This document shows, one piece after another, positions 3,393 through 16,769 of a DNA stretch of 64,000 bases. Within the stretch, counting starts at the first letter, position 1. Every line of letters begins with the position of its first letter. A model generated the notes under the pieces. It did not search any database, was not told where the DNA came from, and was given only the letters and a program-made list of their open reading frames with translations. The stretch is from Bacteriovoracaceae bacterium (GTDB taxonomy: Bacteria; Bdellovibrionota; Bacteriovoracia; Bacteriovoracales; Bacteriovoracaceae): assembly GCA_048270185.1 (NCBI GenBank), contig JBLWTJ010000002.1, forward strand, positions 448,001 through 512,000, written 5' to 3'. The position numbers were made by a program, and so were the translations under genes.

Positions 3393-4508
3393 ATGACAGC
3401 CAGCAAAAAAATAGACTTTTCAATTCACGATCTTTATCAATATTTAGAAAATTCATTTTCTGATAATAATGATTTAGATGTAATATACGTAGAAGACAGC
3501 GATGTAAGTAATACTCAAACACATCTAGTTTTTGAAGCAGCAGTTGGTACTGGTTCTAAAAGACTTAAAGTAAACCTATATGAACGCTTAGATGGAAGTA
3601 AAAACCTTACTGCTCCATCCAGTGGCCCATTAAAAGAAATAGGCGAGCAAATAATTGATCTAATTTATAATAATATTACAACAGTTCCCGTAAAGAATGG
3701 TTCACATGTAGTAAGAGGAACAGAAGAAACTCAAGTCCAATCATTTCTAGAAAAAGTTAAAGCAGCAGGAAACATTGTTGAAATATCAAAAGATGATGAC
3801 TCATTCTTTGTGTTTAAAGTAAACAAGATTAAATGCGGTGAAGTAAAAGTAACGTTCTATCGTACAAATGGAACTATAATGCTTCAAGGGGCTAGTAATA
3901 TATATTTTGGTGAAATTGTATCACACTGCATTGCAGAGCTTGGACACAAATTTGATGAAGCATTTAACTCCATAACAAATTCTGTAGATAATCAGTCTGT
4001 TATTAGTTGGAATGTTAATATACTTGAAAGTAATCTTAAATCAAAGCTAGGCAGTGCTTATGATCAACTTTGGCCCCATGATAAGGAAAGACTAAAAACT
4101 CTACAAATATTCGTCGATAATGATTTGAATTTTCCTGATTATTCAATTTTTGTAGCTTACGTTGGATTTGTTGTTGAAGGTGCAATCAAGTGCTTTTTAG
4201 TAAAGACAGGAATGTATTCAGATGAACAGGTAAGTCGAACAGATTTTAAAATGGCACATCCAGACTGTACAAAACAGGCTCCGTTCCACTTCCCTCAAAC
4301 TAGCTCAGTTAATCCTGTTCTTAACTTTGGACTGCCCAATATTTATGCTAATCTAGAGGGTAAGCTTATTGAGTGCTACCAGTTTTTAAGGACTTATAGA
4401 CATGACTTTAGTCACTCTAGAAAAAATATACAGCTAGTTGCGTCAGAAGCCGATGCGAAGGATAATGTGTTAGATGCATTGGACTTAATAAGAGAGCTAT
4501 TACAATGA
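3393..4508 (+). CDS. RnlA/LsoA-like HEPN endoribonuclease toxin
   Basis: 371 aa; two TBP-like repeats (VNLYERLDG.., VTFYRTNGTIMLQG) and a C-terminal HEPN motif RHDFSH (R-x4-H). Confidence 0.65.
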   Translation: MTASKKIDFSIHDLYQYLENSFSDNNDLDVIYVEDSDVSNTQTHLVFEAAVGTGSKRLKVNLYERLDGSKNLTAPSSGPLKEIGEQIIDLIYNNITTVPVKNGSHVVRGTEETQVQSFLEKVKAAGNIVEISKDDDSFFVFKVNKIKCGEVKVTFYRTNGTIMLQGASNIYFGEIVSHCIAELGHKFDEAFNSITNSVDNQSVISWNVNILESNLKSKLGSAYDQLWPHDKERLKTLQIFVDNDLNFPDYSIFVAYVGFVVEGAIKCFLVKTGMYSDEQVSRTDFKMAHPDCTKQAPFHFPQTSSVNPVLNFGLPNIYANLEGKLIECYQFLRTYRHDFSHSRKNIQLVASEADAKDNVLDALDLIRELLQ

Positions 4509-4888
4509 AACTTGAAAGAGTAAGTTTACCAAATTCAAATTTCTTCTTTGTTGTTCATGACAGCAATAATATTGTTATTTTTGAAAATAAGAATATTCCA
4601 TACACTGGCAATAGCGAGGAGTATATAAAATCCCTATCTGCTTATGATCTAAGCTCTAAGAAAGTTTTTATAGATCAATTGGTAGGCTCAGATATCTCAT
4701 GTTACAGAATTTTAAAGCTAAATGAAAAATCTGCTGTTGAACTTGAATTTCTAACACTACCTAAAAAGATCAAGAGCATGATTAATATGTTTTACAATGA
4801 GGGTGTTGACTTTAAGTACCCTAAATTCTTAGAAAAAACATTTTCGAAGAAAAGAAACAATATTTTAAGTTTCGCACTCTCCTCTTAA
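4505..4888 (+). CDS. RnlB-like antitoxin
   Basis: 127 aa, ATGA overlap with the toxin; size and position match RnlB/LsoB. Confidence 0.5.
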   Translation: MKLERVSLPNSNFFFVVHDSNNIVIFENKNIPYTGNSEEYIKSLSAYDLSSKKVFIDQLVGSDISCYRILKLNEKSAVELEFLTLPKKIKSMINMFYNEGVDFKYPKFLEKTFSKKRNNILSFALSS

Positions 4889-5023
4889 TTAAATAACCAT
4901 CTTTCAATCTTATTCATACTACTAATAAAACTATTCAAGTTTTAATAAAGATATATACTTTAATTAATATAGTAATTAAGAAATAATACCTAAGTAACTA
5001 TGATCATTATAATTTAATACACA

Positions 5024-5075
5024 CCCCTTGGGAGTACCAGTTTTATAAAGAAGCCAGACCTAGTCTGGCTTTTTT
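5024..5075 (+). repeat. att copy 2 (junction between islands A and B)
   Basis: CCCCTTGGGAGTACCAGTTTTATAAAGAAGCCAGACCTAGTCTGGCTTTTTT, identical to 1403-1454. Confidence 0.92.
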
Positions 5076-5097
5076 TATGTCTAAAATCTTCTGCTCG

Positions 5098-6408
5098 TTA
5101 TTTGCTCGTCGATCCTACTTTCGTACTATTCTCATTCATGAAGCCTTCGATATTCTCTAAAGCATCTTTTGTAAGATGAGCTGGACGATCTGTATAGACA
5201 TGCTCCACTAATTCTCTGGTCTTCCAACCACCAACAGCTTGTGCATGCTCAATGCCCATTCTCTCTCGCACGAGGTTTGCCATAGAGTGACGTAGAATGT
5301 GAGTCGAACTAAACTTATGGCCTAATCCTGCATTTCTTAGGGCCTTATTATAACGATAGTGGATCGTTCGATAATTAAGAGGCTGGCCATCTAGATGAAA
5401 GACGAAATCACAGGAAACCTTGTTCCCTGTTCTCATATCTTCTACCTTAGAAGCTTTCCTCTCCTCGAATCGTCTTTTAAGAATAGCAAAAAGTCTTGAA
5501 GTCATAAAAACATTTCGATCTTCACCATTTTTAGGACAATCCTTTATATACTGAAATGATTTTTGTGGTCCCCAGACAGCTACATTTTCAATCTCAATGA
5601 TCCCATCCACAAAGTCGACACTTTCCCATTGAAGCCCTGCAACTTCTTGCACCCTACCAGAAAAATAAAATTGAACTTCGGCCAAATCACGCCAGAAGAT
5701 ATCGTCTTTTTCCAATTCTTCAAAAAAAGAAATGAGTTCATGCCTGCGCATTTTCTTCTTTCTTTTGGGAACTTTTCTAATAAGACCCTCTTGCTTATGT
5801 CTTTTAAGAATTGGATTAACAAATTGTGCATCAATATTTTCTCGATACCAATTAAGTACTGCTTTTAGACATTTAAGGTCATCATTAAAATTGTATCTTC
5901 TACTCTGAGGATTATTTATCGCCTCTTCCTTTTTATCCATTAGATATTCGGAAATATAGCTTGCTGTCATTTCAACCATAGGCCTAGACATCATTCCCTT
6001 TAAAAAGAGCTTTCCATTTTGTACTCGTCTATCAAAGGTTGATTTCTCTACTGTGACGAGGTGTTTAGAGACATAAAGTTCCCAAACATCACTAAAGGAG
6101 TAACCAAAATCATTACCATTTTTCATTTTAATGGTGTCATGCCTTTTTATTTCCTTTCCTAAACTTGAAAGTCGCTGGACAAGCTTTCCTTTTTTAAGTT
6201 TGCTTAAAGGAGTTAAATTAAGACTTGGATGGAAATTTTTCTTCCAATCCGCCGCCTCCTCTAACGTCTTAAAGGACGAATAATATCTCTTTCCTCTGAT
6301 ATATTTTTGCACGAGGAAAGTTCCATTAACTAAATCCTTTCTAATCCCTTTTACATCTTTATACGATACTGAAACGTATCTTCGTTTTTTTTCTGTTTTA
6401 TTGTTCAT
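5098..6408 (-). CDS. tyrosine recombinase / integrase
   Basis: Catalytic R (SGRVQE), K (PKNG), HxxR (HILRHS), W (GGW), Y (HVY). Start at ATG 6408 with AGGAG RBS and TAATG coupling to xis. Confidence 0.93.
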   Translation of the reverse strand: MNNKTEKKRRYVSVSYKDVKGIRKDLVNGTFLVQKYIRGKRYYSSFKTLEEAADWKKNFHPSLNLTPLSKLKKGKLVQRLSSLGKEIKRHDTIKMKNGNDFGYSFSDVWELYVSKHLVTVEKSTFDRRVQNGKLFLKGMMSRPMVEMTASYISEYLMDKKEEAINNPQSRRYNFNDDLKCLKAVLNWYRENIDAQFVNPILKRHKQEGLIRKVPKRKKKMRRHELISFFEELEKDDIFWRDLAEVQFYFSGRVQEVAGLQWESVDFVDGIIEIENVAVWGPQKSFQYIKDCPKNGEDRNVFMTSRLFAILKRRFEERKASKVEDMRTGNKVSCDFVFHLDGQPLNYRTIHYRYNKALRNAGLGHKFSSTHILRHSMANLVRERMGIEHAQAVGGWKTRELVEHVYTDRPAHLTKDALENIEGFMNENSTKVGSTSK

Positions 6409-6668
6409 TAACAATCTCCTTGTAATACCCATTCAAGGATTTCGTTAGGAACGAAAAACAAAAACTTACCTTTTTTCCTTCTCGGAATCTTCTCATCTGA
6501 ACACAGATTATAGATATGTCCTACAGAACAATCTAAGAATCTTGCTACATCGCTTACACGCCATATTCTTTTTTTAAAGAGCTGTTCTTCTTCTCGGAAG
6601 AAACTACTTTTTTCTATGCTATTTTCTACTTCATTGCAATTATTAAACCCTCTAATCACACTATCCAT
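6408..6668 (-). CDS. excisionase-like HTH_17/AlpA-type DNA-binding protein
   Basis: WRVSDVARFLDCSVGHIYNLCSDEKIPRRKKGKFLFF..EILEW; directly upstream of int. Confidence 0.8.
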   Translation of the reverse strand: MDSVIRGFNNCNEVENSIEKSSFFREEEQLFKKRIWRVSDVARFLDCSVGHIYNLCSDEKIPRRKKGKFLFFVPNEILEWVLQGDC

Positions 6669-6697
6669 ACTACTCCAATTTTACGTATTACTAATCT

Positions 6698-6823
6698 TGG
6701 CCCGCTCTAACTTACTGAAATATTACCCCCGTCTAAATTGACCTCCTCCACACTACTGGTTGAGTGGGGGAGGTCAATTTCGTAAGGGGGATTTCTAAGT
6801 AAGTTTAAATACTTTGCGGGCCA
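6698..6823. repeat. 126-nt imperfect inverted repeat (candidate origin or structured RNA)
   Basis: Nested pairings TGGCCCGC/GCGGGCCA, AACTTAC/GTAAGTT, GAAAT/ATTTC, CCCCC/GGGGG, AAATTGACCTCC/GGAGGTCAATTT. Confidence 0.8.
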
Positions 6824-6891
6824 TAATTTTTACCATCCACCTTAATCGCCTCTTAGACGCTTCGTAATCCCTCTCTAATCGCCGGTCATAC

Positions 6892-7626
6892 TCAGATCAA
6901 TCGCTCGCCGAAAGTGTTCGTAAAATTGAAGTTATATTGAAAGTTGTAATAGCCAGTCGTATCCTCTAGATTAATTTTTCCTTTCACCAAATGTGGATTA
7001 TGGCAGAATATAAATAGATCTGAATGCTGTGTTTCTAAATGCTCTTGGAAGACTTCTACATACTTTTTCAAAATAGATTCTTCAGGAAAGAAAAAGATAA
7101 CATAATCGAATGTGTCATCTTTTATGAATTTATAATATTTATTTTGAATACGCGTCGAAGACTTTTGAGTTAGCTCTAACTCTACTGCCATTTTCACATT
7201 ATCATCGGCTTGAGTAATCACCTCTAAGACTCCATCAGGATAGTATCCTCCATCTGATCTATCGTAGCTAAAATCTCGATAGACGTGTTCAAGATCAAAC
7301 TCATTAACATTCTTACGTAGACGAAGTTCTCTAATCAACTCAACCATTCTAGTATCGTGAAACATACTGTGATGGTTTGGTGTAAATTTTCCTCCTTTCA
7401 ATAACAATTCGTTTCCAAGCTCAGTCGCAAATATATATTTTTTGCGACTGAAGTAATCCCTATAACCTTGCACAAGGCCCTTTTTCTCTAGGCCTCTCAT
7501 AACCTTATTGAACGTCTTATACGTTCCTTGGTAAATTGATTCTTCAAATAGATTCTCTAGTGTTAGAATTTTCCACTTAATTAGTGGTCTTAAAAGTTGT
7601 AAATGTACTGGGTTGATTTGAATCAT
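6892..7626 (-). CDS. replication-relaxation (Replic_Relax)-like protein
   Basis: N-terminal wHTH, HHSMFHD, YPDGVL...AVELELTQKSSTRIQNK. Likely start ATG 7626 with AAGGAG upstream. Confidence 0.6.
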   Translation of the reverse strand: MIQINPVHLQLLRPLIKWKILTLENLFEESIYQGTYKTFNKVMRGLEKKGLVQGYRDYFSRKKYIFATELGNELLLKGGKFTPNHHSMFHDTRMVELIRELRLRKNVNEFDLEHVYRDFSYDRSDGGYYPDGVLEVITQADDNVKMAVELELTQKSSTRIQNKYYKFIKDDTFDYVIFFFPEESILKKYVEVFQEHLETQHSDLFIFCHNPHLVKGKINLEDTTGYYNFQYNFNFTNTFGERLI

Positions 7627-7853
7627 AACGTCGATAAGTTTCTCCTTAAAAATCGTGAATAAACATGAGAAACAAGGTCTTACCGAAGTAATAAATGAGC
7701 TGTCAAACGCCTGATTTCGCTTACATCTTACATTTGAGGTATTTTTGCTAGTGCCTGACATCTCTAGAAATCTCGGGACATCTCCAGACAGGTCAAAGTG
7801 CTGTAAGAAAAAAAATTAAAAAAATTTTTCTTACACTTATATAATTGTATCTT

Positions 7854-8486
7854 CTATTTTCGTCGTTTCTTACTTACGTGAAATTTATAATAATCTTCAT
7901 AGAACTTTTCATATTGTTTAAAAAACTCTTCATAATATTTACTATTACTTTCTGGTGTATATGGAGGAAGAGGAGGTAAAGGTGCTCGAGGAAAGCCATC
8001 AAAGGGGCCTCCTCCGTTCGGATCTATATAGTTATTAATTGTAATAAAATTATAAAGAATAGCTCCACCAAATATACTTATATTCATTAATAAGTGTATT
8101 GATGTTACCAAATACCCCAATTGATTTAATGAGAATATTTGTTCAACTGATCCTGCAACTGCAACTCCCACCGTAAATGAGAAAACATTTATGATTCTAT
8201 TTATTCCAGTCCCTAAAGAAATGTAGGAAGCTTTATTTTTTGCAATTTCCCCTAACAGAATTTCCCCAAAACCATAATAAAGAAAAAAGAATCCAATATT
8301 TATAGTCAACAAAAAGAGAATTGCTGTGCTAGGAGATATACGAAAATTACAAATCATACTGAGAGCTCTATCTTGAGATATATAACTTCTATTTTCATGA
8401 TATATGGTATTTAGATAGATCAAGATGAGTACCAAACAAGGAATAATTCCTAAGCAAATACCTAAAATTATGTAATGTAAGTTCAT
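7854..8486 (-). CDS. hypothetical membrane protein (about 4 TM, Pro-rich linker)
   Basis: Hydrophobic segments, PRAPLPPLPP, GGAG RBS. Confidence 0.6.
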   Translation of the reverse strand: MNLHYIILGICLGIIPCLVLILIYLNTIYHENRSYISQDRALSMICNFRISPSTAILFLLTINIGFFFLYYGFGEILLGEIAKNKASYISLGTGINRIINVFSFTVGVAVAGSVEQIFSLNQLGYLVTSIHLLMNISIFGGAILYNFITINNYIDPNGGGPFDGFPRAPLPPLPPYTPESNSKYYEEFFKQYEKFYEDYYKFHVSKKRRK

Positions 8487-8630
8487 TTTTTCTCCAAAAT
8501 TTCTGTATAAATTTCAGAATAGGAAGGCACTTTAATCTAGCTCCTCTCTAAGTATAAACATTATCAATTAATAGCATTTATGAACATATTGATGTTAATC
8601 TAAATTTTAAAATCAATAAGTTATATAAGA

Positions 8631-8703
8631 ATATCCATAAAAATATCCATATATATCCAAAAAGAGTGGATATATGGATATATATGGATATAATTATGGA
8701 TAT
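8631..8703. repeat. array of 3x ATATCCA and 4x TGGATAT upstream of fic
   Basis: ATATCCA at 8631, 8643, 8653; TGGATAT at 8667, 8675, 8685, 8697. Confidence 0.85.
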
Positions 8704-8714
8704 AGAGGTAAAAA

Positions 8715-9764
8715 ATGGAAATATGGCAAAAGAATGTTCAAATCACACCCAAAATTCTCAAACTTATAGCTGAGATTGATGAATTTAAAGGCTCGTGGTC
8801 TGCACTTGGCCAGTTAGCTCCAGATAAGCTTATGAGCCTAAAGAAAGTGGCCACAATTGAATCTGTCGCTTCATCAACTAGGATCGAAGGTGTTAAATTA
8901 AGTGACTCAGAAGTAAAGGCTCTCTTGTCTGGTCTTGATGTGAATTCATTTAAAAGCCGTGATGAAGAAGAAGTCGCAGGTTATGCAGAAGCAATGAACC
9001 TTATCTTTGAAAGCAGTTCAGAACTTATCCCAAATGAAAATATTATCAAACAACTTCATCAAGAGTTACTAAAATTTAGCTCAAAAGACATTCGTCACAG
9101 AGGCGAATATAAAAAACTTAATAATCATGTTGAGGCATTTGCTCCGGACGGAAAAAGTCTCGGTATTATTTTTCAAACCTCAACTCCTCTTGAAACTCCT
9201 TACAAGATGGAATCTCTATCTGACTGGCTTTCTAAATCTACGAGTGAACCTGAAATACATATCTTAATTACCATAGCGATTTTCACAGTGAGTTTTTTGG
9301 CAATTCACCCCTTTCAAGATGGAAATGGAAGACTATCACGTGCACTCACGGCCCTCCTACTTCTAAGAGCAGGTTACGACTACACTCCCTATTCTTCTCT
9401 GGAAAGAGTCATAGAAGAAAATAAAGATTTATATTACTTGAAGCTTAGAGAAGCGCAAACTGAAAATGAAGAGAGTGCTGACGGGCTTATTAGCTGGATA
9501 ACTTTCTTTCTTGAATGTCTTGTTAAGCAGAAGAATTCTCTTAAGAGAAAGGTTGAGAAAGAAAAAATATTAAAATCTCTTCCAAAGCTTTCAGAGAAAA
9601 TTCTCATCCTATTAAAAGAACATGAAAAACTATCTGTTAGTGACATTGTTAAGCTTACAGGAGCTAATAGAAACACGGTCAAATCACACGTTTTTAGCCT
9701 TGTAGAAGACAATGAAATTCAAAAAGGTGGACAAGGTAAAGGGACTTACTATTTTTTAACCTAA
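8715..9764 (+). CDS. Fic family AMPylase with C-terminal HTH
   Basis: HPFQDGNGRLSR catalytic motif; N-terminal SSTRIEG autoinhibitory motif; wHTH tail. Confidence 0.92.
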   Translation: MEIWQKNVQITPKILKLIAEIDEFKGSWSALGQLAPDKLMSLKKVATIESVASSTRIEGVKLSDSEVKALLSGLDVNSFKSRDEEEVAGYAEAMNLIFESSSELIPNENIIKQLHQELLKFSSKDIRHRGEYKKLNNHVEAFAPDGKSLGIIFQTSTPLETPYKMESLSDWLSKSTSEPEIHILITIAIFTVSFLAIHPFQDGNGRLSRALTALLLLRAGYDYTPYSSLERVIEENKDLYYLKLREAQTENEESADGLISWITFFLECLVKQKNSLKRKVEKEKILKSLPKLSEKILILLKEHEKLSVSDIVKLTGANRNTVKSHVFSLVEDNEIQKGGQGKGTYYFLT

Positions 9765-9788
9765 AATGTATCCACATAGGAGAATTAA

Positions 9789-11534
9789 ATGAGCTTTAGA
9801 GTAAAGCCAAATCGTCTTAAGTCTTTAATCACAAGAGGTTTTTTTCCAAAAGAAATACCATGCTGTTTTAGGCCAACAAACTTTTCAGATATTGTAGATC
9901 TATCTCCGGATGAACTAAATCAAAATAAACGTCAATCAGCAAAACTCATTTCACACAATGTAACACGATTTGGTTCATTTACTAGAAAACTAGGAATACC
10001 AAATCCTATCACATTTTATCGTTTATCATCTTTAATATCTGAGCATTTTAATGAAATCCTTCCTCTAACTATAAAATCTAGCTACGGAGTAACTTTTCCA
10101 AAATCATCAACCACTGGAAGAGCTTTCGTCTGGGAATCAGATTGGCAAGAATGGAAAGAAGAAAAGATAAAAAGACAAGCAGGGTATAAATATGCTCTCA
10201 AAACAGATATTTCTAACTTTTATCCCAGTATATACACTCATATAATCCCTTGGGTTCTTCATGGAAAAAAACATTCAAAATCTAATAAAAGAGATAAAAC
10301 ATTACTTGGTAATAGAATAGATTCTTCAATTGGCTTTTCACAAGATAATCAAACACAAGGGTTACCAATTGGTCCAGACACATCATTTCTCATATCCGAA
10401 TTGATTCTAAACAAAATAGACACTACAATAAAAAAGCAACTCAAAAGTGCAAAAATTAAACATAGTGCTATTCGATTTGTAGATGACTGTGAATTTTATT
10501 TTCTCAATAATGACGATGCAAATAAAGCGTTAAACATCATTTCAAGAGTATATTCTAATTTTGAATTAGCACTAAGTCCTCACAAGACTGAAATATACAA
10601 ACTCCCTTTAGAATTTGAAAAAAAATGGGTGTCACAAATAAGAAGCTATCCTAGCCCCATTGCGACAAAAAAGTCCCAAAAGAGTAAACGTCAACTAATC
10701 ATTGACTACTTTGACTTTATCATAGAGCTCCAAAGAGAGAATCCTCACGAACAGGTAATTTCATATGCGATGGCCAGAATTGAAAAAGAGTTTTATCTAC
10801 TTGATGATGAACTGTTATTTTTCTCATTACTCATAAATTTAATCCCATTAGATACGAGTATATTAAAGTGGATAATTCATTTTCTTAATCTTGACTCAAA
10901 ACTACTAGAATCAAATATGCTACAAAATCTATTTCAAGAAGTTATTCCTAGAATTGCTCTTGATTGTAGCGAACATGGAAAGCACAATGATACACTTTGG
11001 GCATTAATTATTTCATATATATTTGATATTTCCTTCTCAAAAAAAATGAGCAATGAAATTTATAAACTAGGAAACTCTTTTGTAAAGATTCTTTGTCTCG
11101 ACTTAACTCTTGTTAGCCTAATGAAAATTGAAAAATCACTGTCTCCAAAAGAAGATGATTTCTTTGAAGAAGACTGGCTTCTTTTTTACACAGTATTTAC
11201 TAACGATGAATTCATTAATTTTAGATCTAACAAAAGTAACGGTATCAAAAAAAATATCTTTTTCAAGATGTTAAAAAATAATAATGTCTCTTTCTATGAG
11301 CCCTTTCCTTCCGATGACTCTATAGAGGCTATTCAGGAATATGTAGCAAAGCTATGTGACAAAATTGAAAGCACAGAGTACAAAATTGAAATTGATGGTG
11401 ACTTCTATGACCCAGAAGACCCACATCTAAGCCAATGTCTCCGATGTGGAGCATTCTTCACCCCTTCTGAACAAGAACAAATTTGTAATTCATGCTGGGA
11501 TGATATAACTCATGAAGACGACATTCCATTTTAA
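9789..11534 (+). CDS. Abi/UG-class (AbiK/Abi-P2/DRT4-like) reverse transcriptase with helical C-domain, CxxC-CxxC ribbon and DDIPF tail
   Basis: RKLGIPNP; TDISNFYPSIYTHIIPWVLHGK; QTQGLPIGPDTS; RFVDD; LSPHKT. Confidence 0.88.
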   Translation: MSFRVKPNRLKSLITRGFFPKEIPCCFRPTNFSDIVDLSPDELNQNKRQSAKLISHNVTRFGSFTRKLGIPNPITFYRLSSLISEHFNEILPLTIKSSYGVTFPKSSTTGRAFVWESDWQEWKEEKIKRQAGYKYALKTDISNFYPSIYTHIIPWVLHGKKHSKSNKRDKTLLGNRIDSSIGFSQDNQTQGLPIGPDTSFLISELILNKIDTTIKKQLKSAKIKHSAIRFVDDCEFYFLNNDDANKALNIISRVYSNFELALSPHKTEIYKLPLEFEKKWVSQIRSYPSPIATKKSQKSKRQLIIDYFDFIIELQRENPHEQVISYAMARIEKEFYLLDDELLFFSLLINLIPLDTSILKWIIHFLNLDSKLLESNMLQNLFQEVIPRIALDCSEHGKHNDTLWALIISYIFDISFSKKMSNEIYKLGNSFVKILCLDLTLVSLMKIEKSLSPKEDDFFEEDWLLFYTVFTNDEFINFRSNKSNGIKKNIFFKMLKNNNVSFYEPFPSDDSIEAIQEYVAKLCDKIESTEYKIEIDGDFYDPEDPHLSQCLRCGAFFTPSEQEQICNSCWDDITHEDDIPF

Positions 11535-11558
11535 AGGAATTTATATATTGGAGAAAAT

Positions 11559-12317
11559 ATGGGCCACTACGATACACAACAAGTTTGTTTAAACGGACAC
11601 CAAATTACAGATTCAGTAAAAAAACACCCTAATGGGAAAAAGGACTTTTGCAATACATGCGGAGCAAAAACAATTACGACATGCCAAAACTGTGGTGCTG
11701 AAATAAAAGGGCATTACTATACTCCAGGTATTGTAAGTATGTTTTCTGCAAGTATTCCAAGTAACTGTGACAGCTGCGGAGCTGAACACCCATGGACTAC
11801 TGCCAGTAAATCAAATGCAACAAAAGCAGCATCTTCAGAAGCTCCATCAATAAATGATTCTATTGAGTTAATAAAATTAATTAGTCAAAGGTTTCATATG
11901 TTTGCAAGACAAATGCAAAATAGGCATTCTAATCGCTCAACTCTAGAATTTAATGATGAATATGATGTGCAAGATGCTTTCCATGCAATTCTTAAATTAC
12001 ATTTTGATGATGTTCGAGCAGAAGAGTATGTCCCAAGTTATGCTGGATCCTCTTCACGTATCGACTTTTTAATACACGATGAAGAAATTGCAATTGAAAT
12101 TAAAAAAACAAGAAATGGACTAAAAGACAAAGAGGCTGGTGAACAGATTGCCATTGATATACAAAGATACGAGACTCACCCGAAGTGCAAAAAACTTATT
12201 TGTTTTATCTATGATCCTGAAGGTAGAATTGGGAATCCAACAGGAATTGAAAGAGATTTAACAAAAAAGGTAAATGAATTACAAGTTATTACAATAGTTG
12301 CACCAAAAGGGCACTAA
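11559..12317 (+). CDS. DUF2321-like Zn-ribbon domain fused to a DpnII/MboI-like PD-(D/E)xK nuclease domain
   Basis: QVCLNGH..FCNTCGAKTITTCQNCGAEIKG..CDSCGAEHPWT; EYDVQD..RIDFLI..AIEIKKTR..FIYDP. Confidence 0.75.
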   Translation: MGHYDTQQVCLNGHQITDSVKKHPNGKKDFCNTCGAKTITTCQNCGAEIKGHYYTPGIVSMFSASIPSNCDSCGAEHPWTTASKSNATKAASSEAPSINDSIELIKLISQRFHMFARQMQNRHSNRSTLEFNDEYDVQDAFHAILKLHFDDVRAEEYVPSYAGSSSRIDFLIHDEEIAIEIKKTRNGLKDKEAGEQIAIDIQRYETHPKCKKLICFIYDPEGRIGNPTGIERDLTKKVNELQVITIVAPKGH

Positions 12318-12341
12318 GTTTCGCGTTTATAAGGGAGTTCT

Positions 12342-13358
12342 ATGCAGGAACATTTTGGATATTTTCCCAAGAAGAACTGGGAGGAACTATCAAATGAACA
12401 ACAAGAGTACTTCTATTCACTTTCAGAAGAAGAGTTGATTTCTCGTTGGAAGACTGAGGACGGATATAAAATACTCGAAGAAATCTTATCTCTAAATAAA
12501 AAGATGAACCTTTCTGGCAAACCATATGAAAGACCAGACTATAGTAAAATTACTGGTACAGTTAAAAGTGACTTGTCAAAAAAACCTCCAAAGTTTGATT
12601 TGAGAGGTATAAATCTTCAAGAATACAAAGCTTCAACAATTGATGAGATTGTTCCACATAACTTTTCATTCTGTGACCTTAGATATTCAAACTTTAAAAA
12701 TGGCAATTATAGTAACTCACATTTTAATAATTCCGATATATTATATAGCGATTTTTCTGGTTCAATATTAGATGAATGTAATTTCTCAAAATCAAACCTA
12801 ACATTGAGTGATTTCAGTTACACAAACCTAGACCATGCAAACTTTAGTAATAGCTGGATAACTAGCCTGAGATTAAAAAAAGCCTCTCTCTCATATGTTA
12901 AGTTTTCTAACGATACAAAGTTTTATGACATAGATATTAGTGAAATCTCAGGAAATGCAAACCCTTTCTTCACTTCACATGTACGTAGAACACTATATCT
13001 GAACAACTTCAGAGAGCAGAGTTCTACAAACAACCTGTTATATCACGCATGGAAAATCACAAGTAATTGTGGAGAAAGTTTCTTTCGATGGTACATAACA
13101 GCATCATGTATTATAGCCCTTTTTGGTTTTATATTCTCCTTGATGCCTGAAGTATTACATAGCGGAACAACTAAAGAGTTAACACCATTCACTTTTTATT
13201 ACTTTAGCACAGTCACCTTCACAACTCTTGGCTTTGGAGATATCACCCCCGTTGGTTTAGTAGGAGAAGCTCTTGTAACAATTGAAGTTATTTTAGGATA
13301 CATAATGCTAGGTGGATTAATTAGTATATTTTCAAACAAATTCATTGCAAAAGATTAA
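12342..13358 (+). CDS. pentapeptide-repeat protein with C-terminal 2TM K+-channel-like domain
   Basis: S/C-D/N-F/L-S-x repeats; pore helix and filter FYYFSTVTFTTLGFGDITP flanked by two TM helices. Confidence 0.85.
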   Translation: MQEHFGYFPKKNWEELSNEQQEYFYSLSEEELISRWKTEDGYKILEEILSLNKKMNLSGKPYERPDYSKITGTVKSDLSKKPPKFDLRGINLQEYKASTIDEIVPHNFSFCDLRYSNFKNGNYSNSHFNNSDILYSDFSGSILDECNFSKSNLTLSDFSYTNLDHANFSNSWITSLRLKKASLSYVKFSNDTKFYDIDISEISGNANPFFTSHVRRTLYLNNFREQSSTNNLLYHAWKITSNCGESFFRWYITASCIIALFGFIFSLMPEVLHSGTTKELTPFTFYYFSTVTFTTLGFGDITPVGLVGEALVTIEVILGYIMLGGLISIFSNKFIAKD

Positions 13359-13492
13359 TATTGCTCGTTTTTGCTCGTCGATAGCCATGAATTAAGATGA
13401 AAAATGATGAAAAGTCCCGAGAAAGAAAAAGGCAAGCCTTTGAAATCGCTCGTAACGCCTTAGAATGATTGATTAAATTTACACGATTGGAT

Positions 13493-13518
13493 ATCCCCTT
13501 GGGAGTACCAGTTTTATA
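13493..13518 (+). repeat. att copy 3 (attR)
   Basis: ATCCCCTTGGGAGTACCAGTTTTATA, identical to 1401-1426. Confidence 0.9.
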
Positions 13519-13520
13519 TT

Positions 13521-13544
13521 AGGCCAGTCTTTGACTGGCCTTTT
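13521..13544 (+). terminator. terminator after attR (probably the original chromosomal tRNA-Glu terminator)
   Basis: AGGCCAGTC-TTT-GACTGGCCT-TTT. Confidence 0.75.
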
Positions 13545-13565
13545 ATATTTTTGGAGGCAGCAATT

Positions 13566-13750
13566 GCCACGATGGCAAATTGATGCCGAACAACGCCGAC
13601 CGACCAGTATGGGAGGTCAGGTGAATCAACTAAGCAAAATAGCCTCACCTACTTTTACTGACAATAATTCAAACAGAAGCGCCACGATGGCAAATTGATG
13701 CCGAACAACGCCGACCGACCACTATGGGAGGTCAGGTGAATCAACTAAGC
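13566..13750. repeat. two 70-bp structured direct repeats (13566-13635, 13681-13750)
   Basis: 69/70 identical; each copy has two CCA-nnn-TGG hairpins. Confidence 0.9.
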
Positions 13751-13830
13751 TATTCCACCCTTCCCCCATTCGTACAAAATCAATTTCTAGCTTACAATAT
13801 TACTTTATCCCTTTAATAAATGAGAAAGTA

Positions 13831-14958
13831 TTGAGCTTAGACTTCTATAATAAACTTCCAATTATCAGCGAATTCACACAAATGGCGGACTTGAGCTTCT
13901 ATCAAGACCTACCGGATGATTGGATTATTATTGTTACAGATGTCATCGATTCAACCAAGGCCGTCGCGGCCGGAAAGTATAAAGATGTTAATACCATTGG
14001 GGCCGCAACGATTTCATGTGTGCAGGCCAAGCTTAAAACGCTTGGTTTTCCCTTTGTCTTTGGAGGCGATGGTGCAACTCTTGTGCTACCAACGAATCTC
14101 TATGAAGAAGTTAAAAGCGATCTAGTGGCCCTAATGAAAATCTCACAAGATAAGTTTGGGCTTAGTATGCGTGTTGGGGCCATTTCAAATAAAGAGCTTC
14201 TTGATAAAGGTATTAAAACAAAAGTCTCGCGTTATCAAATCAATCCCAAGCAGGCCATTGCCGTCTTTAGTGGAGGCGGACTTAAGCTTGCGGATAAAAT
14301 TATAAAAGATGAATACGATAAGTATCAACTGACGGCTTCTCAGGATACAAATTCCGACCTGAGTAATCTCTCATGTCGCTGGAACCCTATTCCAAGTAAA
14401 TTTGGAAAGATTCTAACTTTGCTTATTGAATCAAAATCTCAAGATGAGAATTATTATAATGAGATTCTAACCAATCTGGATCAAATTCTTGAAGGACAAG
14501 TTTTAAATCGAGGACCGATGAACTTGGATAAGATGACGTATAAGGGATTCTTTCAACTATTATTTGAAGAGTCTCGCCTATCCCTATCACTGGATCGTTT
14601 GAAGAGTATCTTCTTTTCAATAGTTTTATTCAAGTGGGGCAAATACAAAGACTATCCAAATGTGGAAAATTACCGCAAGCAGATGGGGCTTCACAGTGAT
14701 TATAAGAAATTTGATGACATGATTAGACTGGTTCTCGACTGTGGCCCAGAACAAGTTAATAAGATCGAAAAATATCTTAAGGATGAATATCAAAAGGGTC
14801 ACTTAATCTACGGAACTCATCTTTCTAACACAGCTCTTATGACTTGCTTAGTGGAAACAATTGAAGATGGAGATCATATTCACTTTATAGATGGTGGTGA
14901 TGGTGGTTACACAGCAGCTTCAATTCAATTAAAAGAGCAGGCCTTACTGCGAGAGTGA
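13831..14958 (+). CDS. DUF3095 family protein (nucleotide cyclase-like)
   Basis: TDVIDSTKAV..GKYKDVN, FVFGGDGAT, HIHFIDGGDGGY. Confidence 0.75.
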   Translation: MSLDFYNKLPIISEFTQMADLSFYQDLPDDWIIIVTDVIDSTKAVAAGKYKDVNTIGAATISCVQAKLKTLGFPFVFGGDGATLVLPTNLYEEVKSDLVALMKISQDKFGLSMRVGAISNKELLDKGIKTKVSRYQINPKQAIAVFSGGGLKLADKIIKDEYDKYQLTASQDTNSDLSNLSCRWNPIPSKFGKILTLLIESKSQDENYYNEILTNLDQILEGQVLNRGPMNLDKMTYKGFFQLLFEESRLSLSLDRLKSIFFSIVLFKWGKYKDYPNVENYRKQMGLHSDYKKFDDMIRLVLDCGPEQVNKIEKYLKDEYQKGHLIYGTHLSNTALMTCLVETIEDGDHIHFIDGGDGGYTAASIQLKEQALLRE

Positions 14959-15753
14959 TATCGCTTCTTCGACAACATTGCCTTTAAAACCTCGACGTTC
15001 AATATAGCGTCTAAAGAAGCCTGAGGCCTTAGCGATGAGGGTTTGTCTTTTTGGAATAACGATCTGTTCAGAACGTTGCTCAATTCCTTGAATGATCTCG
15101 CGAACAACTTCATCAATTGAGATCATCTTCCAAGGTCCTGATTGATTTCCACCCCATAACTTTTCACCGACTGGATCACTTGTTACTCCATCCATTAAAG
15201 GGGACGCAAAGAATGTAGGATGGAAGCTTCCTACATCGACACCTAAGTGCTTAACTTCAAGGCGAATACTATTACAGATGGCGTGAAGACCGGCTTTACT
15301 TGCTGCATATGAAGCTTGCAATGGACAGTGAACAAATGAGGCCATGGAACAGATAGCGGCCATGTAACCTTCGCTAAGGGCAATATAAGGAAGGGCCGCT
15401 TTAAAAGTTCTCCAGGAACCGTTTAAGTTAATATCAATAACTCGTGAAAAGTCTTCTTCATTAGTTGTCATCATTGGGGCCACTTGTGTAATACCTGCAT
15501 TGGCAATGACGATATCGATGCAACCATAGTGAGAATTAATCTCTTTCATCGCAACTTCAAGGGAAGAGTAATCTCTTACATCGGCACTGAAGCCAACTGC
15601 ATCTAAATCTCTGGCCAACTCATTAACCTGTGTTAAGTCGAGATCAATAAGAGCAAGCTTGGCGCCACGTTTAACTAACTCATAAGATAGAGCACGCCCT
15701 AAGCCTCCAGTGGAGCCAGTAATGGCAATCACTTTATCTTTTACTTCTCTCAT
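14944..15753 (-). CDS. short-chain dehydrogenase/reductase
   Basis: TGSTGGLG, NAG, YAASK; start placed at ATG 15753. Confidence 0.9.
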   Translation of the reverse strand: MREVKDKVIAITGSTGGLGRALSYELVKRGAKLALIDLDLTQVNELARDLDAVGFSADVRDYSSLEVAMKEINSHYGCIDIVIANAGITQVAPMMTTNEEDFSRVIDINLNGSWRTFKAALPYIALSEGYMAAICSMASFVHCPLQASYAASKAGLHAICNSIRLEVKHLGVDVGSFHPTFFASPLMDGVTSDPVGEKLWGGNQSGPWKMISIDEVVREIIQGIEQRSEQIVIPKRQTLIAKASGFFRRYIERRGFKGNVVEEAISLSQ

Positions 15754-15926
15754 AAATTCTCCCGATATCGCTTTGGTATAGCACAAGTAAATCTATCGAA
15801 TTGAGTCTTTGTAATAATTCCATCTTCCAAAGAAGGCTAAATAGCGAATTTCACGAGATATTAGTCAATCTAAACAAGCAAAAATGCCCCCTAATCAATT
15901 GTTTAAATTTAAAATGATATAATTAA

Positions 15927-16769
15927 TTGATGAGATGGATTTTGCTAATCGCCCTATTTCTACTAAATATCATGGCCTTTGCTCAAGAAAAGTTCGCCAA
16001 TGAATTCTCATTTAAAATCGAAAATGATGCCGCCTTTGAAACCGATAAGTATTACTCCAATGGAGCTGAACTACTTTATCAGAGAAGATTCTTTCACTCG
16101 TCATCAATGACGAAACTTCGCTTTGGCCTTACTCACCAAATCTACACTCCAGAGGCGACATTTGATGAGACCGTTGTTGAAGGGGATCATCCATATACAG
16201 GTGTTTACTATGGAACTCTAGGACTACTTCACGTCAATAATAGCTTCTATTTAAAAACTGATTTATGGATTGGCAAGCAAGGCCCTGATGCCAAAGCAGG
16301 TATCCTACAAAATCTCTTTCACAAGATGACCCCTTCTTCGCAAGTTAATGGATGGACAAATCAAACGGCCAATAGCTCATTTTATAACGGTGATATTAAA
16401 TTTATAAAAATTAATCGTTCACAATTTTTAGAATTATCACCATGGATGAATATCAGGTATGGTGGTCTAATTAAAGATTACGAGTTGGGACTTAAGACTT
16501 CTCTCTTTCTTGGCCCTCTTCAACTCTTTGCCAACGGATCTGTTGTCTATAATGAATATAACTCAACTCTTCAAGGCCCAAAGAATGGTGAGTCGGTCTA
16601 TGTTATTGCGGAGGACAAGATGAATGATCTCTACTATAAAGCCGACGTTGGTTTTCATCTCATCTTTAGTCGCGTGCGATTTACGATTAAGGCCAATTGG
16701 TATAGTGCTCAATTTGAGGGGGCCAGTGATCATACCTACGCCACTTTTGAGACGGCCTTCTACTTCTAA
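15927..16769 (+). CDS. lipid A 3-O-deacylase LpxR (DUF2219) family outer-membrane protein
   Basis: Signal peptide; END...DKYYSNG; HQIYTP; HPYTG; QNLFH; GWTNQ; C-terminal F. Confidence 0.75.
   Translation: MMRWILLIALFLLNIMAFAQEKFANEFSFKIENDAAFETDKYYSNGAELLYQRRFFHSSSMTKLRFGLTHQIYTPEATFDETVVEGDHPYTGVYYGTLGLLHVNNSFYLKTDLWIGKQGPDAKAGILQNLFHKMTPSSQVNGWTNQTANSSFYNGDIKFIKINRSQFLELSPWMNIRYGGLIKDYELGLKTSLFLGPLQLFANGSVVYNEYNSTLQGPKNGESVYVIAEDKMNDLYYKADVGFHLIFSRVRFTIKANWYSAQFEGASDHTYATFETAFYF

Follow-up and report, generated by a model that had tools for sequence, protein, structure and literature searches.

Reverse transcriptases (RTs) of the DRT4 and DRT6 types produce untemplated, protein-primed single-stranded DNA (ssDNA). 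The product is degraded by exonuclease I (ExoI) in uninfected cells, and both enzymes are toxic in delta-sbcB cells (PMC12783706). Work of 2025–2026 indicates that DRT4, DRT6 and DRT10 are governed by a host ssDNA exonuclease, by phage proteins that resemble SSB, the ssDNA-binding protein, and, for DRT4, by a short sensory C-terminal piece. The gene described here lies at positions 9789..11534 (+) of a 64,000-nucleotide stretch of DNA from a Bacteriovoracaceae bacterium (assembly GCA_048270185.1, contig JBLWTJ010000002.1, positions 448,001 to 512,000), which is termed the window below. It encodes a DRT6/UG12-type RT of 581 amino acids (P0001) that ends in DDIPF, and these are also the last five residues of the host SSB. 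The enzyme is a DRT6 whose SSB tip matches that of its host; such tips are convergent within the family, and in this lineage the tip stands behind a clade-specific cysteine knot. The initial annotation of the window, made by a model from the sequence, knew of no description of such an architecture. In a literature search, with most subscription papers out of reach, no defence RT was likewise seen to be described with an SSB-type tip or with a Zn ribbon.

In DRT4, residues 507–540 are flexible and unmodelled (PMC12783706). The C-terminal subdomain of this enzyme (508–540) binds the phage SSB gp44; defence and RNase activation require the subdomain, ssDNA synthesis does not, and cells tolerate its deletion without toxicity (10.64898/2026.10.21.760695). 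The same work reports that AbiK without its last 46 residues no longer provides defence. In AlphaFold 3 models, the OB-like sheet of gp44 abuts the DRT4 subdomain and, with low confidence, the acidic tail of gp44 lies in the DNA channel of DRT4 (10.64898/2026.10.21.760695). The phage trigger 0087 (Bas48/Bas52) ends in DDIPF, which is also given as the tip of Escherichia coli SSB, and escape mutants of AbiK and DRT2 map to phage annealing proteins (10.64898/2026.10.27.754916). Phage SSB-like triggers of this kind act on DRT4 and DRT10. The tip of 0087 is of the same host type as that of the window RT, but there it is carried by a phage protein and here by the defence enzyme. The toxicity of DRT10 is suppressed by SbcB (10.64898/2026.04.29.721553), and the seven residues at the C-terminus of the host SSB are a specific recognition target of phage RecT proteins (10.1101/2020.04.14.041095). 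UG12 was named DRT6 by Mestre et al.; the words ‘acidic’ and ‘SSB’ are absent from the accessible part of that paper (PMC9226505), and a review, in the part available, holds nothing further on tails (PMC13213688).

Family, fold and tail of the RT

The open reading frame (ORF) has 581 codons, starts with ATG and has AGGAGA 8 bases upstream. Its guanine plus cytosine content is 31.7%, vs 36.0% for the window. The ORF and all motifs quoted in the initial annotation are present. The RT motifs are IPNP at residues 70–73, DISNFYPSIYTHIIPWVLHGK at residues 140–160, GLPIG at residues 191–195 and the catalytic FVDD at residues 230–233 (nt 10476–10487). Further downstream are FFKMLKNNNVSFY at residues 491–503 (nt 11259–11297), CLRC at residues 550–553 (nt 11436–11447), CNSC at residues 566–569 (nt 11484–11495) and finally WDDITHEDDIPF at residues 570–581, which is followed by the stop codon. 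Seven residues, D140, Y149, H151, D232, K266, W463 and F502, are invariant across 107 homologues.

The protein had been annotated as an Abi-type RT resembling the AbiK clade. The wider placement stands, i.e. it is a class 1 UG/Abi enzyme, but it belongs to DRT6/UG12 and not to AbiK proper. The PADLOC model Drt6 (PDLC03748) matches residues 8–517 with an E value of 6.3e-127, vs 2.8e-46 and 2.2e-43 for the AbiK models, and in Pfam the RVT_1 palm alone is matched (E 1.1e-12). The best sequence match in the PDB is DRT6 fused to maltose-binding protein (9wy8, E 1.9e-45), and next come DRT4/UG15 (4e-30), Abi-P2 (1e-24) and AbiK (1.8e-14). It should be pointed out that two PADLOC models labelled Drt4 (PDLC02177 and PDLC02179) score the RT almost like Drt6. 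They co-score with Drt6 in all 26 DRT6-like homologues scanned, and a genuine DRT4 (P0101) is best matched by PDLC02180 instead. These two models act as DRT6-type models despite their label.

An AlphaFold2 model of the RT was built on 107 homologues and has a mean predicted local distance difference test score (pLDDT) of 91.1 and a predicted template modelling score of 0.88. Motif positions and pLDDT values mostly >90 assign residues 1–503 (9789..11297, +) to the fingers and palm and to a helical alpha-Rep domain. Between about residues 300 and 500 the model consists of helices with high pLDDT, and this alpha-helical repeat domain replaces the thumb. The end of the helical domain, annotated near residue 503, agrees with the family profiles, which stop at about residues 504–517. 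The top fold match is 9wy8_A, with a template modelling (TM) score of 0.87 normalised to the target, an E value of 3.5e-26 and 26% identity. Below it rank DRT4 (TM 0.77, normalised to the target) and AbiK and Abi-P2 (TM 0.52–0.58). AbiK and Abi-P2 are of the same class as the window RT, which by homology is expected to form a hexamer that makes untemplated, protein-primed, enzyme-attached ssDNA for anti-phage defence, but their profile, PDB sequence and fold matches to it are much weaker than those of DRT6. The loop that aligns with the priming Tyr125 of DRT4 has no conserved residue among the homologues compared.

Only P0002 and P0003 reach about 52% identity to the RT among 5.8 billion clustered proteins; the next best match has <=32%. 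An exhaustive search of 1.84 billion representatives returned 3554 relatives at E <= 0.001, of which 749 also passed a cut-off of E <= 1e-30. Metagenome scans for closer relatives gave nearest matches of just 23–27% identity, and the ESM Atlas gave no usable match.

The tail begins after the helical domain, and residues 504–581 include 21 acidic and 4 basic residues. Its first part (residues 504–549; 11298..11435, +) consists of a helix at 512–530 and then an acidic flexible linker; the linker contains the sequence EYKIE[IV]DG, which is kept within the clade in an alignment with P0002 and P0003. This part aligns loosely to the tail of the solved DRT6. The second part is a putative Zn ribbon, CLRC-x12-CNSC (C550, C553, C566, C569; 11436..11495, +), and the third is the SSB-type tip WDDITHEDDIPF (11496..11531, +), whose last five residues (11517–11531) equal the host SSB tip. 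Thus the four-Cys element and the SSB-type tip that the annotation placed behind the helical domain were both located by sequence. No Pfam family matches over CLRC-x12-CNSC, and the Zn ribbon label is putative. In the AlphaFold2 model the linker (529–542) has a pLDDT <50, the Cys-rich knot, formed by two short strands and a helix, has values of about 66–76, and the last block has 45. The low confidence of the linker and the last block is the picture expected of a tethered flexible tip.

The four Cys residues are invariant in the RT, P0002 and P0003 (3/3 of the clade), and these three alone among 201 family tails have two CxxC pairs; therefore the Cys knot is a trait of this small clade. P0002 and P0003 end four residues short of the window RT, in ..MLKD and ..ILED vs ..THEDDIPF, which suggests that DIPF is a recent four-residue extension. 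Conservation of the tail in close homologues, to which the annotation had tied its proposal, is therefore partial: the four Cys are kept in both proteins and the tip is absent from both. When the tail region was searched by itself, the query was the sole match, and no other protein with this tail was found.

The solved DRT6 (9wy8, a chain of 495 residues in the fold library) has the same RT motifs, an alpha-Rep domain and a long acidic tail past its ordered core, and the stretch KIE..DF.D in this tail is loosely common to the window RT. It differs in that its tail, which matches P0059, ends in ..DEDEDGDIFE and has no SSB tip and no Cys pairs. In the family at large, the core-end motif (..V.FY) can be recognised in 201 of 263 pooled proteins, which extend a median of 32 residues past it, and the net charge is <= -5 in 75 of these 201 tails. 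Long acidic tails are thus common in DRT6, and what sets the window RT apart is no more than its exact tip and its putative Zn ribbon. This corrects the annotation, which had counted an acidic linker among the residues added behind the helical domain.

Tip identity, convergence and host match

The annotation proposed a comparison with the C-terminus of the host SSB, and this shows the last five residues (DDIPF) to be identical. The host SSB is encoded on the same contig (C2) and ends in ..SFTSDDIPF. As in SSB, the RT tip is acidic, is found at the extreme C-terminus and follows a low-confidence, flexible stretch, i.e. acidic residues and then [IL]-P-F stand at a free C-terminus on a flexible linker. 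The difference is in the carrier, a polymerase with an ssDNA product of its own. The RT has no Pfam SSB match and its model has the RT fold and no OB fold; thus it is not an SSB, and the tip alone is shared.

Ends of this type are rare in the genome. On the five main host contigs, D[IL]PF ends are found in 2 of 2452 ORFs of >=150 amino acids, the SSB and the RT. The end DDIPF occurs in 3 of 3563 ORFs of >=80 amino acids in the whole assembly, the third being an SSB of 244 amino acids on contig C8. This was considered as a second host SSB and rejected, since its contig matches Vibrio megaplasmids with 99.0% identity. The RT tip might also have come from the 3′ end of ssb by gene conversion; this is unsupported, as there is just an 11-base identical run within the five codons and no likeness downstream. 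Apart from these, an ORF of 165 amino acids on contig C19 (1279–1776, +) has N-terminal CxxC pairs and an SSB-tip-like end, ..EFSEDLPF.

A count of homologues with SSB-type ends, also proposed in the annotation, gives 17 SSB-like tips among 267 homologues, and 7 of the 17 are D[IL]PF. It is based on a FastTree tree of 267 cores, from which rows <480 or >700 amino acids, incomplete rows and rows without the core-end motif were left out. On this tree the 17 tips require 14 changes by parsimony, compared with a mean of 16.7 when the labels are shuffled, which signifies that the SSB-like tip arose many times. The 7 D[IL]PF ends require 6 changes, and among them L015, L063 and P0262 alone share a clade (support 0.98). 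Ends in D[IL]PF are about 60 times commoner in the RT family than in the host, 7/267 vs 1/2451 other host ORFs. At least two acidic residues in the last eight together with a P[FWY] end are found in 13 of the 201 tails, e.g. in P0194 (..NDDIPF), P0262 (..DDDDLPF) and P0204 (..EDEDLPF).

Tips were also found in genomes. The best 80 of 584 genome-resolved relatives were examined as loci, and 77 of the 80 have a complete C-terminus, three running off the contig. These loci added the tips of L015 (..VYDDLPF), L063 (..EDEDLPF) and L037 (..DPDDDPF). Among 401 Bacteroidota-phylum genomes there is a DRT6-like gene in 5, and one of these, L095, ends in ..EPTDLPF. A DRT6-family RT on a viral contig (L117) has the end ..DDDDDDDLPF. 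Two sisters of the ..DDLPF RTs in the Bacteroidota clade, P0249 (..EDLPED) and P0233 (..EDLDWED), and the solved DRT6 (..GDIFE) have endings without a terminal Phe, and these may be decayed or alternative tips.

The tip might be thought to have no specific function, i.e. it could be a neutral four-residue read-through extension of an acidic tail, with a fortuitous likeness to SSB. The tip is indeed short, the nearest relatives are without it, and the tail-only search matched no other protein. However, the rarity in the genome (2/2452), the roughly 60-fold excess in the family, the repeated origins and the matching to the host described below would be hard to get by drift, and we consider this explanation very improbable.

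The host match concerns the I/L position of the tip. In all four D[IL]PF RTs with a known genome this residue is that of the host SSB: DDIPF in both the window RT and its host SSB; DDLPF in both the RT L015 (genome G061) and its host SSB; EDLPF in the RT L063 (G062) and DDLPF in its host, which has two SSBs; and TDLPF in the RT L095 (G256) and DDLPF in its host SSB. L015, L063 and L095 are from Bacteroidota. P0262, from a Mucilaginibacter, is outside this comparison of four. The three LPF cases come from two lineages and the comparison thus amounts to about three independent observations, so that the match is suggestive but not proof. The claim that the RT mimics the SSB tip is nonetheless borne out, as the tip is identical to that of the host, nearly unique in the genome, convergent and host-matched. 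That it is a functional mimic of some kind we regard as likely.

A different kind of mimicry has to be weighed here, namely that the tail imitates ssDNA. With its acidic residues and its aromatic end, the tail would fill the OB-fold groove of a host or phage SSB, or the RT's own DNA channel, and would thereby gate synthesis or pre-load SSB. It is known that SSB tips fold back on their own OB fold. The negative charge of the family tails described above fits this possibility, as does the abundance of aromatic last residues, found in 84 of the 201 tails (Y 57, F 25, W 2) vs 12.8% of host ORFs. The AlphaFold 3 placements of DRT4 with gp44, where the gp44 tail is found in the DNA channel at low confidence, are also in its favour (10.64898/2026.10.21.760695). 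But a generic acidic mimic needs no exact D-D-[IL]-P-F end, and the agreement of the I/L position with the host SSB is left unexplained. We therefore look upon ssDNA mimicry as improbable. As to the aromatic ends themselves, Tyr and Phe are terminal in 4.6% and 7.4% of host ORFs and in 57/201 and 25/201 of family tails, respectively. Many of the terminal Tyr residues come after glycine runs (..GGGGY, ..PGGY), and a second, non-SSB terminal motif seems to exist.

Sensing and recruitment as possible roles of the tip

From the identity of the tip we infer that it has a binding partner, and it probably lets the RT dock proteins that normally read the SSB tip. In the role we favour, the flexible C-terminal piece of the RT would have evolved into a copy of the partner-docking tip of the host SSB (..DDIPF-COOH), tethered by a disordered acidic linker and placed after a small four-Cys knot. 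As the RT tip copies the host SSB tip, the RT with its attached ssDNA would look like SSB-coated ssDNA, and readers of the SSB tip would dock on the RT. A phage replication or recombination protein could then engage both the ssDNA of the RT and its tip, and this two-factor contact might switch the RT to a toxic, abortive-infection state. Candidate triggers are RecT-type annealing proteins and other factors that take over the host SSB tip or compete for it.

Several observations favour this reading. The window RT and DRT4 belong to sister families, and in DRT4, too, there is a flexible C-terminal piece past the alpha-Rep domain. The tail of the window RT occupies the position of the DRT4 sensory subdomain, copies the host SSB tip and belongs to a family whose tails are hypervariable. 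Hypervariability is expected of a specificity element. By analogy with DRT4, a role as a host-matched SSB-tip decoy for sensing a trigger is a real possibility, although we stop short of calling it probable. The wider proposition is that DRT6 RTs in at least five lineages independently copied the SSB tip of their own host, that RT and covalent ssDNA form a decoy that lures phage readers of ssDNA and tip, and that docking fires abortive infection. Taken as a whole, this is somewhat doubtful.

A number of points weigh against a decoy sensor. The DRT6 that has been studied experimentally ends in ..GDIFE, yet it defends. The two nearest relatives, P0002 and P0003, have no SSB tip, which indicates that the tip is dispensable for basic function. 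The DRT4 subdomain is not SSB-like, and as there is no detectable sequence similarity between it and the tail of the window RT, the analogy is one of position only. The host match concerns a character with two states and amounts to about three independent observations, which gives it a probability of about 1 in 8 of arising by chance. In addition, several RTs with looser ends do not match: L037 has DDDPF and its host SSB DDDIPF; L035 has EDNGF and its host SSB EDIPF; L080 has EDGDF and a host SSB without a canonical tip; and L057 has NEEIF and its host SSB DSLPF. The same is found for L018 (GNNPF; host SSB DDIPF), L094 (SIEYF; host SSB DDLPF) and L092 (PFSPI; host SSB DDLPF). Looser acidic or aromatic RT ends do not follow the host SSB tip. 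Furthermore, we know of no phage of this host.

The main rival to a sensing role is recruitment of host SSB-client nucleases. A nuclease or helicase that normally reads the SSB tip would be brought by the RT tip to the nascent RT-linked ssDNA, which is too short for SSB coating, and would trim the product in uninfected cells. Phage SSB-like proteins would outcompete this client, by a tip of their own or by protection of the 3′ end; the product would then accumulate and the cell would die. This is in keeping with the toxicity of DRT4 and DRT6 in delta-sbcB cells and the degradation of their ssDNA by ExoI (PMC12783706), with the suppression of DRT10 toxicity by SbcB (10.64898/2026.04.29.721553) and with the DDIPF end of the phage trigger 0087 itself (10.64898/2026.10.27.754916). 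Possible clients are at hand, as PriA, RecJ and RecQ, all above family cut-offs, and five DEDDh exonucleases are encoded on the main contigs of the host. A host-matched tip fits recruitment equally well.

The initial annotation had named ExoI among the candidate partners of the tip, and this does not hold for the present genome. The sole ExoI of the assembly, a divergent protein of 551 amino acids, is encoded on contig C23 (5.8 kb), 100% of which aligns to a Vibrio vulnificus megaplasmid with 99.2% identity. The protein is 99% identical to one from Vibrio cholerae and was rejected as a native partner. Contigs C8 and C23 match megaplasmids of V. vulnificus and Vibrio parahaemolyticus of about 0.9 Mb with 99% identity over their full length; they are therefore co-assembled foreign DNA and not host genes, and ExoI is not the SSB client here. 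At E <= 1e-20, ExoI was found in none of 60 further genomes from the phylum of the host, and the ExoI family was not found in four other genomes whose RT has an SSB-like tip, three with D[IL]PF and one Geobacteraceae genome with DDDPF.

Further points speak against recruitment. ExoI restrains the studied DRT6, which has no SSB tip, and deletion of the C-terminal subdomain of DRT4 is not toxic (10.64898/2026.10.21.760695). A housekeeping restraint should be conserved, and the tip is scattered over the tree. On balance we judge recruitment to be unlikely. The annotation also suggested that the tail may sequester host replication and repair factors. This is rejected by reasoning on stoichiometry: a low-copy RT would add few tips to the thousands present on SSB, and sequestration is therefore implausible.

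Whichever partner is involved, a DRT6 that carries the host SSB tip letter for letter offers an easily mutated handle on how variable tails choose their partners. As E. coli SSB is also described with the tip DDIPF, this species should be suited to such tests. If the RT does act as a decoy, RT-based immunity would be linked with phage recombinases and with the SSB interactome, and the enzyme would represent a host-mimicry sensor built into a polymerase. The sequence of the tail would then predict what class 1 UG/Abi RTs sense, which would be a general rule for trigger specificity.

Genes around the RT

The RT gene is the second of four genes on the same strand (8715–13358, +), each separated from the next by a gap of exactly 24 bases. 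Upstream is a gene for a Fic-domain protein with a winged-helix C-terminus, similar to SoFic (8715..9764, +; Pfam Fic E 8e-16, PADLOC SoFic E 1.6e-48). Downstream is a gene for a protein with a DUF2321 Zn ribbon and a DpnII/MboI-type restriction endonuclease domain (11559..12317, +; Pfam E 3e-29 and 1e-55, PADLOC Aga_Helical-REase E 3e-34). The PADLOC model matched by this protein is that of an Argonaute-associated helical restriction endonuclease, and the protein may be a stand-alone defence nuclease. The last gene of the cluster encodes a pentapeptide-repeat and ion-channel (Ion_trans_2) protein (12342..13358, +), which was recognised by Pfam and has no PADLOC match. A consensus scan gives a best promoter-like site before the cluster at 8667–8694, although the number of such sites is not above chance, and a terminator-like hairpin after the cluster at 13521–13541. 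The run may be a stacked defence operon.

A DUF3095 protein is encoded near the defence genes (13831–14958, +; E 5e-108), and a gene for a tyrosine integrase borders the island on the opposite strand (5098..6432, -; Pfam Phage_integrase E 6.8e-15). No Rfam family was found in 4000–16000.

The DUF2321-restriction endonuclease protein was considered as an effector of the RT. Among the 80 genome loci, its families were found in 0 of 28 close-downstream ORFs (same strand, <=150 bases after the RT), and it is therefore unsupported as a conserved partner of DRT6. In one of these neighbourhoods, from Acidobacteriaceae (L047:4137–4970, +), the gene that starts directly behind DRT6 encodes a DEDDh (RNase_T) exonuclease (Pfam E 1.3e-23). 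It was seen in this one case, which is of interest since a 3′–5′ exonuclease restrains DRT6 in E. coli.

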